The notes: generated by a model not told the origin, from the sequence alone. A DNA stretch of 64,000 nucleotides from Dehalococcoidia bacterium (GCA_965220265.1 CBDCPM010000001.1:30803-94802); one strand, 5' to 3'. Positions 1,983 through 56,260 are shown, numbered from the stretch's first letter. Made by a program: numbers and translations.

Positions 1983-2099
1983 TGTGACTCTCCGGGATTT
2001 GGACCTGGCGATTGCCCTTCATGTTGGTTATGTGCGCCCAAGATCACCGACGTTAAATTATACCTTCCATGGTTCGCGCAAGGGTCATTATGTGAATCC

Positions 2100-5977: not shown

Positions 5978-6207
5978 TATCTATCTCCGGGGTAGATTTC
6001 ATTGCGTACGGCATCAACGCCCGACGAGTCCAACAGCGGTCACCTGACACAGACCTCGAGCTTCTACTTCTGACCTACCAACGGTGAGGTGGACCGGGGA
6101 AACTGGATAAATGAAGGAATTGCGCTTTGCGTTCCCTGTAAACCTGCAGTATGCAGAACCTCGCTACGAATCGTGGTCGCAGTATAGCAGCGCGTGCTGT
6201 TTCGGAG

Positions 6208-6275
6208 AAAAAAGGGTGAAACCCTCGGCTGCCCAGCAGGTGCCCGCTGGTTGGAAGACTGGCGGGCACCTGCTG
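6208..6275 (-). terminator. Putative intrinsic terminator (two hairpins plus T6) read on the minus strand
   Basis: A perfect 14-bp stem, CAGCAGGTGCCCGC (6234-6247) with GCGGGCACCTGCTG (6262-6275). On the minus strand it is followed by GGGTttcACCC and TTTTTT (plus-strand A-run 6208-6213). No annotated gene ends nearby; it lies downstream of non-coding element A. Confidence 0.4.
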
Positions 6276-6949
6276 ACGCCCTATTTCTCATCCCTCTGCA
6301 GTGGTGAACCTACACTTTCGCCGGGATAATTGAGGGCCTGTCCCCCTTGCCTCATAGAGAAATGTTGCTGAACTTCGCTCGCACAAGGTCTCCTGGCGGA
6401 TCCAGCCACGAAATGGGAGATAACTTGCCACCGCCGTTGGGAAGACTCGCTGCAACCCATTGGCGGAACTGATTTGCCCGCGCCTTGCGCAGACGGCTCG
6501 GCCTTATTGATACCCACGTTGGATCGCTCAAAATGGTCATTATGTAAAACGACCACTGCCAGAATGCCGCATACCGGCCCAATGGGGATTTCGTCGTCTC
6601 GTTTTTCCGCCCTCGATGATTCAATGCGTCACGTCATGGCAGTGTTCCGTGGAATGGTGTAATGAACGTCAGCCTCTCTGACCTTCAGGCAGCCAAACTG
6701 TGAGGCCGATAACCTGGAAGTTAGGGACGGGCGCGGTCACTCGTGCCGTAGCTGTACCGGCTCCCCATTCTCAGTCTTCCGACGGCGGTGCGGATCGTAG
6801 CCGGCCAAAGGTGCGATAAGTGGCTCTTATCACCCGTTTAGGAGGGTCCGAAGCTTGGCTCGATTTACGTCCTTTTCCGCCACTCGCCGGCGGGCAAATG
6901 ACACGGGGCGGCTCCATCGCTCGACCCTTCGGGCATCGCCCTGGCTTTA

Positions 6950-7912: not shown

Positions 7913-8824
7913 TCACGCCCGCCAGATGTCGAGGCGCTGCCAGTCCGCTAGGAAACCCGTGCGACCTTGAGGAATGCGTGGGTATCGATTCATCAGGGTT
8001 TTCAAGCCCTCTGCCCATCCCGCACCGCCCTGGATGACCCCGGTCAAATAGGCAACCATCACCAACGCGTTATAAAGCCCACCGTTATCAGCCCGATTGA
8101 AGAACCCGGGTGAATCCCTGAATCCACCCAGCCTCTTTGGTACTGCAATCCTGGTGATGAACTCCCTATCCCACAAGCGCTCGTGATGCGCGCAGATGTT
8201 TCTGATCGGCGCCAAGTGGCGCAGGACCGCCCGCAGTATCCGCTCGTCAATCCCGTAGGCGCCGGCAACCAGTCGTCGCACCGGGCGGCAGGTGTCTCCG
8301 TACCATCTGGAAAGCTGACCAAACGACATCACCTCGACAATCGCCCAGATCGGGCAATCCGCAAAATGGTAATGGTGCGTTCCTCTGCCATGCCGGTCAT
8401 AGGCTCGATGCAGGTCTGCCAAATTCTGATAGTACCGTGATGAGAACAGTTGTGAATTCAAGTGCGCAGACGGACCGTCGCCTGCGCCGCCGGCCAGATG
8501 GTGAGCCCATTGGGTACGTACGGATACCTCAATGTGGTTGAAAGCATCCAGGAGCAGAGTGCGCAATTCCCGATCGAATTCATACCGCTCGATCACGGCA
8601 TCGAAGGTAGCGCCAGTTCTGAAGGCGTGCCGGTCGCCGTTTACCGTCCGATCTTCGAAGGGATCCCAGTAGCCCCGCAATCGATAGAAATTGACGTGGC
8701 TGAGGAAATGGGTGGCCTTCTCCGGATGCGGAATCGCCATGCCGCGTTGCCACAACTGGTCCAGGCGATCCTGGATGGACGTACCGGGAGCAGGGGACGT
8801 CAAACTCGTCTCCCCAGTGGTCAT
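7913..8824 (-). CDS. Abi_2 family abortive-infection protein (AbiD/AbiF-like)
   Basis: 303 aa. It contains FLSHVNFYRLRGYWDPF and NICAHHERLWDREF, which are the characteristic Abi_2 motifs (YYRL.gY and H..RlWn). Confidence 0.8.
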   Translation of the reverse strand: MTTGETSLTSPAPGTSIQDRLDQLWQRGMAIPHPEKATHFLSHVNFYRLRGYWDPFEDRTVNGDRHAFRTGATFDAVIERYEFDRELRTLLLDAFNHIEVSVRTQWAHHLAGGAGDGPSAHLNSQLFSSRYYQNLADLHRAYDRHGRGTHHYHFADCPIWAIVEVMSFGQLSRWYGDTCRPVRRLVAGAYGIDERILRAVLRHLAPIRNICAHHERLWDREFITRIAVPKRLGGFRDSPGFFNRADNGGLYNALVMVAYLTGVIQGGAGWAEGLKTLMNRYPRIPQGRTGFLADWQRLDIWRA

Positions 8825-9065
8825 TTTATCGCCTATAGAATAGTAAACCCCCCTGGTGCGCCGTTCCGATGAGAGGCGTGAGGGGTATTGTCAGAACTAA
8901 GCTACTATGCCGATAGCAGGCTGTCAAATCCAATCCTGGTAACTGTTCAGAGTTGATGAGATCTGCGGGCTTTTTGGCCGTTCCCAGAGCCGTGGCCAAG
9001 TAGGCAATTCCGGTGCTGAGCCGATCAGATCCCCTCAAACGTGAACAATTACCAATCCTGGGCCA

Positions 9066-12593: not shown

Positions 12594-13353
12594 ACCAGGG
12601 GCATTGAACTAAGGGAGCACAGCTGGGTCGGTGCGTGCGCTCAATGGAAGTGAGGATTGAGGACCGAGTGATAGACGACAATTAGTCCTGCCGGCCTGTT
12701 GCCTCCTGACGAATCGCGCCACGAGACGTGAGATAGCCGGCCACCGTCGTCGGAAATACCCACTACAACGCATCGGTGGACCTGATCTGTCCGTGCGCCG
12801 TTCCGGCACCCTCCGCTTTATTGATACCCGCGTTGGTTCGCCAAAGAGTCATTACGTAAATCGGTTCGTGCGGGGCGTGTCGCCACTGGCCCGATTGCGA
12901 TTTCCGCCGCCCTGATTTCCACGGGCCGGATTACGGAAATCGCTGCCACGTTGCCCGCCACTCGTCGCCAGGCCTCGCCACCGCACGGTCGTCGCGATGG
13001 AAATCGCAATCCGATCGTCCCCACCAGGATGCCATCTACACGGGACGCTATTGATACCCCTCGCCCCGGGAAAGGGGCCAGATTTGGTCACCGTATCCGG
13101 CCTGCCGGAGGGGAACAGCGCCTTCCGGCGCGGGGCGCGTCAATTTGTGGGCGAAAAAGCCCCCGCCGGATCTACCGGCGAGGGGTAAGGGGGTGACCGG
13201 CGCCGTTTGCCGCCCGGCGCCGTCACTGGTGATTACGCTGGCCCTACGGGAACGGATTGCCGCGCCAGGTGCCGGGCGCGGCCATGCATCAACGCTGGCT
13301 GGCCGGAAACCTACTCTGTTCAGAGTTGAGGGGGAAGTGAGCAGTTGCGCGAT

Positions 13354-14565
13354 TCACGCTTCCCCATGCTGCGACAGGTCTACGCCCCTCTCCTCATCCG
13401 GTTCACTGAGCCGGAGACCCATGGTGTGTTTCAACACCAGCAGGATTATGCTAGTCATGACGAATGACCAGGCAAACGCGGCCAGAATGCCGACCACCTG
13501 GTAAAAAATCTGCTCCAGCCGTGACACGTCGGCTTCCAGCGCGCCGAAACCGACGCCCACGAAGATGCCCGTAGCAACGGCGCCCCACATCCCGCCAACG
13601 CCGTGAATGCCGAACACGTCCAGGGAGTCGTCGACACGCAGCCGGTGCACCAGCTCAACGGCGGCAAAACAGATTGCGCCGGACACGCCCCCGATGATCA
13701 GGGCCGGCATTACGCCCACAAATCCCGCCGCCGGAGTGATGGCCACCAGGCCCGCCACCGCGCCGGCCGCCGCCCCACTGCCCGACTGTCGCTTGGTGAG
13801 TATCCACGAGACGACCGACCAGGACCCCATTCCCGCCGCCGCGGATGTGTTGGTGACGACGAAGGCATTGACGGCGGTCTCAGTGGAAAGATTAAAGCTG
13901 CTGCCCGCGTTGAATCCGAACCACCCGAACCACAGCAGACCCGCCCCCAACATGACCAACGGCACGTTGTGGGGCGTCACGGTTACCGATCCGAAACCGA
14001 TGCGCTGACCCACGATGAGTGCGGCCGCCAACGCCGCCGAGCCCGATGCGATGTGTACGACGGTTCCTCCGGCGAAGTCCAGGGCGAACCCCGCTTCGCT
14101 CATCCCCAGCACGCTGCCCAGATTGCCCAACCAGCCGCCGCCCCAGACCCAGTGGGCCAGCGGGGCGTACACGACGGTTACCCACACTCCGGCGAAGACG
14201 ACGTAGGTGGGAAACTTGAAACGCTCGGCGAACCCGCCCGAAATGAGGGCAACGGTGATGATGGCGAACATTCCCTGGAAAATCATGAATGACTGCTCGT
14301 GGAGACCCACCCCAACCATCCCGAACTTGGAGAGGTCTCCCACGAACCCCAGACCGCCCGCGCTGTTGCCGAACGCCAGGCTGTAGCCCCACAGCACCCA
14401 CAACACGCTCACCACGCTGATCGCAGTGATGGAGTGCATCATCGTCCCAATGACATTTTTATGGCGCACCAGCCCGCCGTAGAAGAGCGCCAGACCGGGC
14501 ACCATGATGAACACCTGACCGGCGGCAATCAGAAAGGACAGGACTTCAAGCTCGGAGAACTCCAT
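13354..14565 (-). CDS. amt: Ammonium transporter (Amt family)
   Basis: About 403 aa and highly hydrophobic. It contains FIMVPGLALFYGGLVRHKNV, DFAGGTVVHI, GWFGFNAGS and HGVGGMWG, which are canonical Amt/AmtB motifs. The ATG is at 14565; a GTG lies one codon upstream at 14568. Confidence 0.95.
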   Translation of the reverse strand: MEFSELEVLSFLIAAGQVFIMVPGLALFYGGLVRHKNVIGTMMHSITAISVVSVLWVLWGYSLAFGNSAGGLGFVGDLSKFGMVGVGLHEQSFMIFQGMFAIITVALISGGFAERFKFPTYVVFAGVWVTVVYAPLAHWVWGGGWLGNLGSVLGMSEAGFALDFAGGTVVHIASGSAALAAALIVGQRIGFGSVTVTPHNVPLVMLGAGLLWFGWFGFNAGSSFNLSTETAVNAFVVTNTSAAAGMGSWSVVSWILTKRQSGSGAAAGAVAGLVAITPAAGFVGVMPALIIGGVSGAICFAAVELVHRLRVDDSLDVFGIHGVGGMWGAVATGIFVGVGFGALEADVSRLEQIFYQVVGILAAFAWSFVMTSIILLVLKHTMGLRLSEPDEERGVDLSQHGEA

Positions 14566-14960
14566 CACTCATCTCTCCATCACTCGTTTCTCCATCCCCC
14601 AGGCGCCGGACAACTCAAAATCCAGGATCCCTCGGTAGCAATGTAGCCGGACTGCCGCGGGGACCTGGTGGTGCGCATTGCCAGTTTAGTGCAACAACTG
14701 CCCCCAATGGCACGGGACCGTCAGACGGGACTGAGGAAGTGCGTGCCCCGCCCACAGCGCCGACGACGAGACCGTACAGGACTCTCACCTGGCGATGGAC
14801 CATTGCCTCACTAAAGCCGTCGTTGTATAGCTGGCGCTCAATCAAACTTGGCATGGAAGGGATAAAGGCGATGCAATTTGGTCCTGGCGGCTTTTGATAC
14901 CGGATCGCGGCGCAGCCCAAGCGCCTTTCCCCACGCCGTTTCCGCAACTCTCGCCCACAC

Positions 14961-15200
14961 CTATTTGCAGTAGTGGGCGTAGTCGGACCTGATCTCCGCC
15001 ATGGTGAGTTCCCCCCGCTCCAGTTGCGCACGCACCCGCTCCTCCACCGCCGCGGCGCTCAGCACAACGGTGCCGCTGGCGCTGGACGCAGTCAGACTAT
15101 GCAGCGTGGTGTTGGCGTCCGCCATGCATCCGGCGTACATACGCGCCATCCTGTCGTCGGCGTCCACCCCGCGGACCAGCACGACCCGCAGGCAGACCAT
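14961..15200 (-). CDS. Small hypothetical protein (79 aa)
   Basis: Only the C-terminal part of ORF 14961..15536 looks protein-like (MVCLRVVLVRGVDADDRMARMY...ELTMAEIRSDYAHYCK). The ATG at 15200 follows GGAGGTGGAGG. Confidence 0.35.
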   Translation of the reverse strand: MVCLRVVLVRGVDADDRMARMYAGCMADANTTLHSLTASSASGTVVLSAAAVEERVRAQLERGELTMAEIRSDYAHYCK

Positions 15201-15265
15201 TGTCGCCTGCGCCTCCACCTCCAGTGCACGGTTGGCTCTCCCAGACACCCAACGACGGGAACCCG

Positions 15266-15760
15266 TCAGGGGAGCCCCGCCCCATCGACCGCCCGATCCG
15301 GCATCCCCGCCCCGAACCTGTGAGACGTCGCCACCGCGGCGAAGTCGGGATCGACGAAGTAGCTCTGCAGCGGGCTGTTGGCCGCCACCGGCCGGGGCAG
15401 CATAATCCCCCGTTCCCGCTGGAACCGCCGCAGCGCGTGGCTCATCCGCATCAGCACCGAGCGCAGCTCCGCCGCTGTCAGGTCGGCCCGTTGGCAAAGT
15501 GTACGCCGGTGTATGCCCGCAGTGCCGGCCCGCCACACGTGGAGCGCCGTACGCCTGGCCGCGGCGTCCAGGCTCGCCGTGAAGTCGGAGGCCAACTGCT
15601 CCGTCCAGCCGCCCGACGGTGGCGATGGGGAGCCTGCCGCCGGTTGCGGCGCGGAGATCTGCCGCCCATCTGGAATACGGACGGTTGCGCCGCCCAGGTG
15701 GCCCAGGAATCTGATCACCTCGTCAACATCGCCCACCACTTCCACTTGGATCCACACCAT
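15266..15760 (-). CDS. Hypothetical protein (about 164 aa)
   Basis: ORF 15266..15892. The ATG at 15760 (MVWIQVEVVGDVDEVIRF) follows GGAGCGAGCAGG. The C-terminal half (IHRRTLCQRADLTAAELRSVLMRMSHALRRFQRERG) looks like a helix-turn-helix. I recognised no family. Confidence 0.45.
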   Translation of the reverse strand: MVWIQVEVVGDVDEVIRFLGHLGGATVRIPDGRQISAPQPAAGSPSPPSGGWTEQLASDFTASLDAAARRTALHVWRAGTAGIHRRTLCQRADLTAAELRSVLMRMSHALRRFQRERGIMLPRPVAANSPLQSYFVDPDFAAVATSHRFGAGMPDRAVDGAGLP

Positions 15761-47504: not shown

Positions 47505-47717
47505 TTACCAAGGCCATGGCCTCATCAATCCCCATTCGGTGACTCTGCCGGCATTGTCCCGCCAGGCCGGTGTGACATAGATGCCCACCAACCACCGTTG
47601 GATTGCGTATCGGATGCGGGTGGGAGCCACGGCCAACTCTTCCGCCAACTGGGGCACCGACCGTGGGCCATGGCTCAGGCAGCGCCCGATTTGATGGCAC
47701 AGGTGGTCATACCCCAT
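47505..47717 (-). CDS. Small HTH protein coupled to the recombinase (possible excision or regulatory factor)
   Basis: 70 aa. GPRSVPQLAEELAVAPTRIRYAIQRW looks like a helix-turn-helix. Its ATG overlaps the recombinase stop (TGATG at 47715-47719). Confidence 0.4.
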   Translation of the reverse strand: MGYDHLCHQIGRCLSHGPRSVPQLAEELAVAPTRIRYAIQRWLVGIYVTPAWRDNAGRVTEWGLMRPWPW

Positions 47718-48742
47718 CAGGCCTTCTTCTTCCGCTTGCGGGAATACAACTGGGCGACGACGCTGCGGCCGGCGAACTGTGCCCCGACGTAACGGGCCAC
47801 CGTCTGGGATGACTTCCAGCGGCCCACGGCCTGGAGCTGGGGCATGGTGGCGCCGGCTTCCGCCAGGTCGACGGCCATGCCGACCCGGCAGCTGTGGCCG
47901 CTGTAGCCTTCCCCCAGACCGGCGGCCACCGCGGCGGCGGCGATGCGTTCGCTGATGGTGGCCGGCTTCAGGTCGAACACCTTCTCTTCGCCCTCGTCCT
48001 TTTCCTCCCCGGGCAGCAGCTGTTGCCTGGGTCGGATCCGGTCCACCGCCTTCATGGTGGGCGGTCCCAGGTAGAGCACCACGCCCTCGCCCTCCTGGTC
48101 GGTCTTGGACCAGGGTATGGTCAACCGGCCGGACCCGTCCGGCTCGGTGACGATGTGTTTCCAGAGGATTTCGGCGGCCTCGGAGCGGCGCAGCAGGGCG
48201 TCGCGCATCACCGAGATCAGGGCGATGTCCACCAGGCCGCGGCGTCGGGCGTTGCGGGAATGCTCCATTCCGCGCTCGGTCTTTCGTGGGTTGCGGGCGG
48301 TTTCCCGGATCTTCTCGAGGTCTTCACCGGTGAGGGGTTTGGCGCGTTTTTCGCGTTGGCCCGCTTCCTTGGCGCGGTTGACGAACCCCTTGATGACCAT
48401 GGCCACCCTATCTTTGCAGGGGCTGTCGTATTTCGCGGACCGGTGCTCGGCGGCGATGCTGGAGGCGTAGCCTCTGAGGGTGTTGGGTTTCTTGCCGACT
48501 AAACCCTGTGTGAAGATGAACACGGCCACGGTTTCCGGATCGGCCGGCAGGGATTGAAATCCCCTTGCCTGGCACCACTCTTCGAAGGTGTTCCATTGCT
48601 GGCCCTGCTGATAGCGGGTGGTTTTAGCCCGGCTTTCCTCGGCCACCTCGCTGACCAGTTTCTCCATCAGCTCCCGCACGTCCGGTAGGTTGGCGGGGGA
48701 TGGGGGAGCCTGGGGCTCTGGGGACAGTACGGGTGTGGTCAT
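47717..48742 (-). CDS. Tyrosine site-specific recombinase (Cre/phage-integrase family)
   Basis: 341 aa. It has an N-terminal SAM-like core-binding region (TTRYQQGQQWNTFEEWCQARGF), then LLRRSEAAEILWKHI, GYSGHSCRVGMAVDLAEAG (HxxR) and GRWKSSQTVARYVG (catalytic Tyr). Confidence 0.9.
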   Translation of the reverse strand: MTTPVLSPEPQAPPSPANLPDVRELMEKLVSEVAEESRAKTTRYQQGQQWNTFEEWCQARGFQSLPADPETVAVFIFTQGLVGKKPNTLRGYASSIAAEHRSAKYDSPCKDRVAMVIKGFVNRAKEAGQREKRAKPLTGEDLEKIRETARNPRKTERGMEHSRNARRRGLVDIALISVMRDALLRRSEAAEILWKHIVTEPDGSGRLTIPWSKTDQEGEGVVLYLGPPTMKAVDRIRPRQQLLPGEEKDEGEEKVFDLKPATISERIAAAAVAAGLGEGYSGHSCRVGMAVDLAEAGATMPQLQAVGRWKSSQTVARYVGAQFAGRSVVAQLYSRKRKKKA

Positions 48743-48929
48743 TTTGTTTTCCTTCGGGATTAATAACTAAAACTTACATTATGATTCTTGACTATACATA
48801 ATCTTTCTGATAAAATCAAGATTAGTATAAAACTAAGTATGATCAGCAGTTAAAAACTAATAAATTTAGTGTTTCCTGGTGCAGGGCTGCCGCTGGACCC
48901 CATTGTCCCAGGTTCGCCATTGTCCCAGG
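48743..48929. promoter_or_regulatory. AT-rich (about 25% GC) divergent control region with repeated motifs
   Basis: It contains TTGACT-N17-TAAAAT. Three AAAACTAA-like repeats are present. AATCTT and AAGATT form an inverted pair. CCATTGTCCCAGG occurs twice (48900-48912 and 48917-48929). The region lies between the recombinase and the MTase-like gene. Confidence 0.5.
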
Positions 48930-55578: not shown

Positions 55579-56260
55579 CACACCTCCGCAACGCCCCTGG
55601 TACGCTGATTCTCCGTTTAGCCAAGCTCCACCACCCCGTTGGTGGTGCGCCGTCCACCGGCGGGGTGGCACTTGACTCCTTTGCCCCTTCGGTCGCGGGG
55701 AACAGCGCTATGAGTCGTTCTTCCTGGGGCCTCCGATGTCTGTCGCTGTGAAGAGGAAGCTGGCCGTGAAACTGTACTCCAATGGCGCGTGCCAGCCAAG
55801 GATGTGGGGGGACTCCGCCATGGAGATTGCCAGGTTCGGTCCGACCAGAATCCTTCCGAACTCCGCCGTCGCCCATTGTACCGCCATTGGCAATGGTCAC
55901 CACGTTACCCGACGTAATGGAGGTTGTGCGAATCAACCGAGTATCATAGATAAGAGCCTCCAACCGACTACCGTGCTTCGACTTCGCTGAGTCGATCTCG
56001 CCACCAGCGGTTTCCGGGTGGACCTACCGTTCACATGGTTCCTGAATAACTTCACCAAATTAGCTGGAGCCTGTCAGCCGAATGTGTCCGCAAAACGAGT
56101 TGTCTGGCCTTGTTAGCCGTTAGATCCACCACGGACTTCTCAGGTCACATTCCGGTCGACGAACCAAGACGCTTTTCGCTGCGGTGGCCAAACGCCCGTG
56201 TCACTCGGAGGTAGGAGCGGCTTCAGAAACCAATCTCCCAGATAAGGAGAACAGCAACCT

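Follow-up and report, generated by a model that had tools for sequence, protein, structure and literature searches.

Introduction

Circles that carry a dif-like site integrate into chromosomes by tyrosine recombination. The integrative mobile elements exploiting Xer recombination (IMEX), such as CTX-phi, TLC, and the gonococcal genetic island, use the single chromosomal dif for this purpose. Their integration leaves co-oriented flanking sites, and tandem arrays are possible. In the plasmid resolution sites cer and psi, the Xer core is accompanied on its XerC side by accessory DNA of about 160-180 bp. On Acinetobacter plasmids, dif modules are bounded by pdif sites and depend on XerC/XerD (PMC10132070, PMC6449649, PMC13141974). 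Moreover, insertion sequences (IS) of the IS1202 family, the "dif hunters" of the ISAjo2 group, are found inserted 3-5 bp outside the XerC arm, and their ends read TGT...ACA (PMC10132070). No paper on such sites in Chloroflexota was found in the literature. The present work concerns a repeat with a dif-like core in the genome of a Dehalococcoidia bacterium. Two copies of this repeat, elements A and B, lie in a stretch of 64,000 nt (contig C1, 30803-94802), which is referred to as the window and whose coordinates are used unless a contig is named. The assembly (G000) comprises 5.08 Mb in four contigs. On balance, A and B are probably diverged copies of a genus-restricted repeat that resembles a miniature inverted-repeat transposable element (MITE) and carries a cassette junction for a tyrosine recombinase. 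All the support for the recombination part of this reading is comparative.

The repeat family

Elements A and B align by blastn over 164 nt with 73.2% identity (89.7 bits, E ~5e-18), whereas 100 dinucleotide shuffles of B gave at most 22.9 bits. An original prediction, made from the sequence of the window, had estimated their similarity by eye at roughly 70-75%. This estimate was accurate, and the three aligned blocks that it cited were all located in the window sequence. The extents proposed for the two elements (6320-6625 and about 12650-12975) had to be revised, although the elements themselves are real. Element A starts at 6344 with an IS-type terminal repeat and ends at 6627 with a degenerate right repeat; its conservation is sharpest at 6344-6551. 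Element B ends at about 12945. Its left end is rearranged, with a short multi-copy sequence (X repeat) followed by a remnant of an IS end, and roughly positions 10-45 of the family are missing. The features of the two elements are the following.

6344-6627, plus strand: element A, full copy of the MITE-like form (nhmmer 190 bits, profile positions 2-206), consisting of an IS-type left repeat, about 130 nt of interior, the 45-bp module, a 76-nt right part of "class f", and a degenerate right repeat
6344-6373, plus strand: left terminal repeat of A, CCCTTGCCTCATAGAGAAATGTTGCTGAAC, homologous to the termini of a 1.66-kb IS with an rve transposase
6504-6550, plus strand: module in A, scoring 19.2 with a position weight matrix (PWM) from published sites, the third best of about 10 million positions; its blocks are TTATTGATACC (6504-6514), the gap CACGTT, the C-arm region GGATCGCTCAAAA (6521-6533), the spacer TGGTCA (6534-6539), and the D arm TTATGTAAAAC (6540-6550)
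6615-6627, plus strand: degenerate right-end repeat of A, GATGATTCAATGC, from a scan for paired left and right inverted repeats (IRL...IRR)
12670-12692, plus strand: 23-nt X repeat, GATAGACGACAATTAGTCCTGCC, also apparent in short multi-copy blast matches to positions 70-112 of B
12695-12863, plus strand: core of B (nhmmer 162 bits, profile positions 14-207), consisting of the IS-end remnant CCTGTTGCCTC (12695-12705) and family positions of about 46-207
12818-12862, plus strand: module in B, with the blocks TTATTGATACC (12818-12828), the gap CGCGTT, the C arm GGTTCGCCAAA (12835-12845), the spacer GAGTCA (12846-12851), and the D arm TTACGTAAATC (12852-12862)
12864-12945, plus strand: right part of B, "class f", homologous to 6552-6627 in A and identical with the third aligned block of the original prediction

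A family profile was made from eight copies and used to search the genome with nhmmer. According to this count, A and B are two members of a larger family and not a pair. About ten long copies (about 207 nt, E = 1e-60 to 1e-18) were found, and at about 30 further places the match is confined to the last 45-50 nt. Of 25 congeneric, sponge-associated SAR202/Dehalococcoidia genomes, 10 contain long copies, with at least 60 in the genus and a maximum of 19 per genome; such copies are absent from 16 other genera of the order. A scan for the module pattern in one genome per prokaryotic species gave matches almost only in "Dehalococcoidia bacterium", "SAR202 cluster", and sponge-derived Chloroflexi metagenome-assembled genomes (MAGs). 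Hence, the element is specific to one genus of sponge-associated SAR202 Dehalococcoidia. The alignment of 32-33 copies has about 207 columns, a mean identity of 74%, and a sharp left edge at GCATTGCCTCA. The size of the repeat is 207-285 bp, and complete copies with both terminal repeats measure 234-246 bp.

The 45-bp module and its dif-like architecture

The most conserved part of the repeat is a 45-bp module just inside its right end. The module has an 11-6-11-6-11 layout and reads TTATTGATACC, 6 bp, GGTTCGCnCAA, 6 bp, and TTAYGTrAAnc. The block TTATTGATACCC...GTCATTAYGTAAA, one of those cited in the original prediction, corresponds to this module, which includes a dif-like 11-6-11 arrangement. 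The same prediction had proposed decayed ends of an unrecognised mobile element as one explanation of A and B. This was half right, as the left 30 nt or so are an IS terminus, but the module had been missed as a unit of its own. The total number of modules in this genome is about 36, and about a quarter of them are embedded in the IS-derived repeat. The module is an independent unit; the IS-end motif is missing within 1.5 kb of 25 of the 36 modules. Over the 36 modules, conservation is distributed as follows.

D'-like block, 11 nt, TTATTGATACC: 1.30 bits per position
First gap, 6 nt: 0.54 bits per position
C arm, 11 nt, GGTTCGCnCAA: 1.43 bits per position
Spacer, 6 nt: 0.91 bits per position
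D arm, 11 nt, TTAYGTrAAnc: 1.30 bits per position
Flanks of the module: 0.2-0.4 bits per position

The last 28 bp show the architecture and the arm sequences of a dif/Xer core, and the inner arm ends, CnCAA and TTAYG, are inverted repeats. The PWM was derived from 21 clear proteobacterial dif-like sites (Table 8 of PMC10132070), with the spacer neutralised, and both strands of the genome were scanned. Among the positions scored, modules account for four of the eight best and about 13 of the top 45, in a register that is exactly that of C arm, 6-bp spacer, and D arm. Another of the eight best is a related single-copy site, which is described below. The module is dif-like in sequence and may be considered a candidate Xer substrate.

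Like cer and psi, the long repeat has about 160 bp of conserved DNA on the C-arm side of its dif-like core, about 207 bp in total. In contrast to these sites, at least the first 30-70 bp are an IS terminus, no PepA, ArgR, or ArcA sites are in evidence, and the copies are dispersed in the chromosome instead of occurring once per plasmid. The module also differs from the chromosomal dif proper, as its roughly 36 copies lie in islands and not at one terminus site.

Junctions and orientation of the modules

Breakpoints of homology cluster at the module. Within the genome, left units of 0.6-1.5 kb are shared at up to 99.5% identity and diverge 0-8 nt before the right end of the module, and the homology shared by right units starts 19-44 nt before that end. 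For instance, 2.8 kb on the right side of B (12819-15600), comprising the amt gene and its 490-nt 3' region, are 90% identical to C4:3174335-3171590. This duplication starts 44 nt before the right end of the B module, which is the left edge of the module. In the genus, 96 instances were compared. Of the alignments with at least 85% identity, 18 of 22 on the left side and 14 of 22 on the right side stop within the module, so that breakpoints lie inside it in 32 of 44, and only one pair spans the module.

Locus A itself is a mosaic. On the left, 1,669 nt up to position 6548 are 94.8% identical to genome G009; on the right, about 1.5 kb starting from the C arm or spacer are 95-96% identical to genome G024. 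The remaining flanks of these two loci are a type I-E-like CRISPR array on the right in G009 and an X repeat on the left in G024. In genome G013, the left flank of the module at C4:3663125 is joined to the right flank of the module at C1:20524, both positions being those of G000. The same segment is found in differing contexts joined at the sites, which is a feature of dif modules of the Acinetobacter type. Defence-type genes such as Abi, the amt gene, and the CRISPR array are among the cargo beside modules.

Of 21 pairs of neighbouring modules with less than 30 kb between them, 19 are co-oriented (p = 2e-4). On contig C1, the six modules at 20-44 kb, A and B among them, all point in the same direction, and 20 of the 23 modules of G009 are on one strand. 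Co-oriented sites with reassorted segments are the outcome expected from the integration and excision of circles by site-specific recombination.

Several features are shared with pdif sites. In both cases, many 28-bp sites with an 11-bp C arm, a 6-bp spacer, and an 11-bp D arm lie outside the terminus, delimit reassorted gene segments, and are associated with IS. Nevertheless, neighbouring pdif sites alternate between C/D and D/C, in contrast to the prevailing co-orientation found here. The present segments are several kilobases long, lie on megabase chromosomal contigs of a Chloroflexota symbiont, and are known from sequence alone. Moreover, a third conserved 11-bp block is present, and some of the copies are located inside an IS-derived repeat. 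Co-oriented dif-like sites and arrays are also typical of IMEX. Here, unlike in IMEX, the arrays are found at many loci, and all modules are more than 400 kb away from the single-copy dif-like site (C4:61480).

Integron arrays and clusters of attC sites lacking integron-integrases (CALINs) likewise consist of co-oriented sites that part exchangeable segments. Sequence homogeneity of the sites within a lineage is a further common feature, as seen in sedentary chromosomal integrons. In contrast, the module has no extended imperfect palindrome or fold of the attC type, and the segments here comprise several genes over several kilobases, while integron cassettes are single promoterless open reading frames (ORFs). 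The recombinase encoded in the window also lacks an IntI signature, as it gives only a weak match to an XerC-type NCBIfam model and none to an integron-integrase model; no genome-wide search for IntI was made.

The IS-derived left end

The motif GCATTGCCTCA..AAAnGTTACyGAA opens both the long repeat and the 1.66-kb IS. Several full or partial copies of this IS are present, including C4:437241-435587, 3222434-3220763, and 2820025-2821684, and its right end reads ...TTCGGTAACATTTCTCAATGAGGCAAC. The product of 506-533 aa has an rve integrase-core domain (Pfam E = 1e-9), but scores far under the cut-offs of the IS481, IS21, and IS3 models and below the cut-off of every curated IS model. In three copies of the IS (E = 5e-4 to 3e-3), the alignment pairs position 1 of the IS with position 1 of the family profile. 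The homology covers the left 30 nt or so and continues more weakly to about position 70. Complete copies of the repeat were found at no fewer than six loci in several genomes, including C3:121250-121495 in this one. They end one base past the module in CTCCTTTCGGTAGCGTCCTATTTGAGGCAATGC, a matching inverted repeat (ending ...TATTTGAGGCAATGC). Of the two copies in the window, A has a degenerate right repeat and B lacks the left one. In the IRL...IRR scan, A is a 284-bp unit, the same as locus L034 of G024.

Since the ends of the profile and the IS coincide and complete copies carry a matching inverted repeat, the long element is best regarded as a MITE-like derivative of the resident rve IS. As is typical of MITEs, it is short (234-285 bp), non-coding, and multi-copy, with terminal inverted repeats that match a co-resident autonomous IS. 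It departs from typical MITEs in that no target-site duplication was detected, many copies lack one end, and the recombinase-type site in its interior also occurs apart from the MITE.

The physical association of an rve/DDE IS with dif-like sites is reminiscent of the IS1202 dif hunters. The geometry does not fit such dif hunting. Here, the dif-like site is inside the IS-derived repeat, and the IS terminus faces the C arm at a distance of about 160 bp. Furthermore, the complete IS copies are not near modules, their ends read GCATTGCC..., and their transposase falls under all curated IS cut-offs. A composite transposon, with a left repeat, a module, cargo, a second module, and a right repeat, was also considered and rejected, as no such pair lies within reach.

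The X repeat at the left edge of B is one of 15 copies in the genome, eight of which abut ends of the rve IS or the MITE. It might serve as a favoured target or belong to one IS end as its outermost portion. At C4:1851086, the X repeat forms a palindrome around CCTGTTGCCTCA.

Proposed recombination and candidate enzymes

If the module is a recombination site, a tyrosine recombinase, either the host XerC/XerD or a member of the family encoded in the islands, would bind the two inverted arms and exchange strands within the 6-bp spacer. Recombination between two co-oriented modules would release the intervening kilobases as a circle with one module, and this circle could dock at any other module. 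Such a process would lead to arrays of co-oriented modules with reshuffled multi-kilobase segments between them. In its MITE form, the docking site might additionally spread to new loci if it were mobilised in trans by the IS transposase. A more far-reaching and tentative proposal, less likely than the recombination site as such, is a two-tier shuffling in SAR202 sponge symbionts. Multi-kilobase circular segments would hop among many loci of the chromosome via the dif-like site by tyrosine recombination, while the site itself would be moved inside a MITE by the rve transposase, resulting in an integron-like platform with a transposing attachment site.

Both candidate enzymes are present. The host genes are XerD-like (C4:2656679-2657608) and XerC-like (C4:3981639-3982670), and their proteins share 37% identity. 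The islands of this genome encode six paralogous tyrosine recombinases, one of them in the window.

47717-48742, minus strand: island tyrosine recombinase of 341 aa, one of six paralogues, with a Pfam PF00589 match; candidate enzyme for the module

The island recombinase genes adjoin module clusters or lie within them. Across 25 congeners, their copy number correlates with the number of modules (Spearman 0.77, p = 7e-6); the correlation of genome size with module number is somewhat weaker (0.63). Host XerC/XerD and the island recombinase are rated as candidates of about equal standing. Directly upstream of the recombinase gene in the window, a stretch of 110 nt (48760-48870) is strongly AT-rich and contains short inverted ATTATG/CATAAT repeats. 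It may be the gene's own site or its promoter.

A possible link to the host enzymes is offered by the single-copy relative of the module. The canonical dif core CATAA-N6-TTATG is absent throughout the 5.08-Mb assembly. The pattern TTCGCnnAnnnnnCRTTAYGT occurs 0-2 times per genome in most congeners and 14-28 times in module-rich genomes. In at least 18 genomes, a single-copy variant reads GGTTCGCACAA, 6 bp, and TTATGT, followed about 38 nt on by an inverted ACATAACG, and it is kept even where the flanks differ. In G000, this copy (C4:61480-61545) reads GGTTCGCACAA-GGCACG-TTATGTTGACG, with the inverted partner ACATAACGTGC 38 nt downstream, and has a CoA-transferase gene on one side and a four-gene tRNA cluster on the other. 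No sequence in this genome comes closer to a canonical dif; it may be an unusual dif or the site of another recombinase. The Dehalococcoides dif sites from a 2011 prediction are unrelated.

If the module is active, the chromosomes of this genus offer dozens of docking sites for the exchange of gene blocks of kilobase size. The principle of dif modules, IMEX, and integrons would then reach beyond proteobacterial plasmids to include chromosomes of uncultured symbionts in the Chloroflexota, and it would help to account for the assembly of large, island-rich genomes. A recombination site within a transposable repeat would be a simple means of seeding new cassette platforms. For the annotation of these MAGs, the 45-bp module can serve as a concrete marker of island boundaries. 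If it is inactive debris, the repeat family is an ordinary one.

Counter-evidence and alternative explanations

A number of observations weigh against a recombination site at the module. The D arm mostly reads TTACG and not the near-universal TTATG. A has a 2-nt insertion in its C arm, which is common to the G024 copy, and B has no left terminal repeat; because of these lesions, A and B may both be inactive relics. The breakpoint analysis was anchored on the conserved motif, which creates a bias toward breakpoints near it. At locus A, the identity to G009 falls already in the middle of the element, near 6423, which indicates that ordinary homologous exchange among copies also occurs. Around the six complete copies, no consistent target-site duplications were found, and the length of the duplication made by the parent IS could not be set. 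Since no target duplications were recognised, we only infer the transposition of the repeat itself.

The position of the single-copy site also argues against the reading. C4:61480 lies at the minimum of the cumulative GC skew and not at the predicted terminus, and the orientations of rpoBC, 16S rRNA, tuf, and rpsL place the origin near C4:61480 and the terminus at about 2.2-2.8 Mb. In eight complete relatives, the distance from the site to dnaA varies between 8 and 48% of the chromosome. A positional proof of the site as a true dif thus fails on GC skew, gene orientation, and the variable distance to dnaA. As its position does not fit the terminus, C4:61480 as a true dif, and hence the link of the module to XerC/XerD, is unproven. 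Coding-strand bias was uninformative on the position of the terminus. The dnaA gene of G000 (C4:1.53 Mb, minus strand) lies at neither of the GC-skew switches (about 0.065/4.18 Mb and about 2.68 Mb).

The strongest competing explanation, although rather unlikely, is passive debris. A and B would be decayed MITEs or solo IS ends, the module would be a terminus or internal piece of some other mobile element, and the mosaics would have arisen from nested insertions, deletions, and RecA-type exchange. Indeed, the region is crowded with IS fragments, the left end of the repeat is IS-derived, and both the lesions in the two copies and the loss of A/G009 identity in mid-element, away from the module, are what debris would lead one to expect. 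It accounts poorly for the many modules that stand apart from any IS-end motif, and for 11-6-11 blocks that fit published dif-like sites in exact register. Moreover, left and right units overlap inside the same 28 bp, and debris does not predict the strong co-orientation of neighbouring modules.

An explanation as regulatory DNA or an unstructured transcript is improbable. According to this explanation, the module would be a promoter or operator before island genes, or the element would form a 3' untranslated region (UTR) or small RNA ending at the hairpins at 6212-6277. A shared promoter would likewise give a conserved motif with variable flanks, and a sigma-70-like match (TTGATA, 16 nt, CAAAAT) does lie within the module of A. 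A sigma-70 promoter was nonetheless rejected, as the module of B has no such match and the pattern of conservation is unsuitable: within the module, conservation is lowest where the -10 region would be and highest in the blocks that would form the spacer. B is located between two convergent genes, where it has nothing to drive, and a promoter does not explain the many conserved left units that end at the module.

As for the transcript, terminator-like hairpins are present downstream of A on the minus strand. One with a T-run is at 6226-6212, and a second, read from the sequence, is at about 6237-6277. The original prediction had described them as a double hairpin with a T6 run (6208-6275) following A. 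Hairpins and T-run exist, but they are housed in a separate repeat (5980-6339), which is 88% identical to C4:3457854-3458215 and distinct from element A. The position of B downstream of amt was likewise confirmed, but a terminator-like hairpin of amt (13184-13160) intervenes between the gene and B.

A structured non-coding RNA family or 3'-UTR element, the main idea of the original prediction, is close to refuted: a conserved, non-coding element of about 210 nt speaks for it, as does an 8-nt inverted repeat, GGCGAACC ... GGTTCGCC, in which G-U-compatible changes are seen by eye in some copies, but Rfam gave no match at the gathering threshold across the whole window and none in A or B even at E<=1, and the consensus fold is negligible. 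For 32 copies from 10 species, the RNAalifold energy was -3.07 kcal/mol (four pairs) for the plus strand and -3.0 kcal/mol for the minus strand, which amounts to no structure in a 220-column alignment this variable. A TnpB/IscB omega-RNA, an IS110 bridge RNA, and a group II intron were also rejected. No protein family recurs at a fixed place within 1.5-4 kb, so that a guide or bridge RNA serving an adjacent nuclease or recombinase is unlikely, and the Rfam scan of the window gave no match to an intron model.

A protein-coding fragment was ruled out as well. The indels are not multiples of three, as had been noticed at the outset; gap runs are mostly of 1-2 nt, period-3 variation is weak, and no reading frame is conserved, since none is open in more than 7 of 32 copies. 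ORFs that cross the element form clusters merely through DNA similarity. Within the favoured reading, and with the same measure of confidence as for that reading as a whole, the repeat seems to act as DNA, neither as RNA nor as protein.

Further modules and neighbouring features

Two further modules in the window stand without the long repeat.

2056-2099, plus strand: module-only copy (C1:32858-32901; nhmmer E = 6.6e-5)
55912-55953, minus strand: module-only copy (C1:86714-86755), reading TGATTCGCACAA-CCTCCA-TTACGTCGGGT

The right flank of the first is 86-87% identical to those of two other modules, starting 29-39 nt before the right end of the module. A lone third copy of ATTGATACCC, the first block of the module only, lies at 13051-13060, 190 nt to the right of the module in B.

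In G009 (contig C1, locus L023), the CRISPR array has the repeat GGGTCTATCCCCGCGCGTGCGGGGGAACCC and spacers of about 32 nt, and starts at about position 1708, 3 nt past the D arm. The module at this locus is orthologous to that of A and, by the orientation of the repeats, abuts the trailer end of the array. In G000, an ORF of 1074 aa on the minus strand (C3:13514-16738; MTANINGYCLGIDMGTNSIGWAAV...) is Cas9-like and situated upstream of the long copy at C3:17273, at a distance of about 0.5 kb. Finally, a sub-threshold match to the abiF RNA motif was seen in the window at 8847-8885 on the minus strand (27.2 bits against a gathering threshold of 37, E = 0.14). It is located 23 nt upstream of a gene with an Abi_2 domain (7913-8824, minus strand), which is the usual place of this motif.

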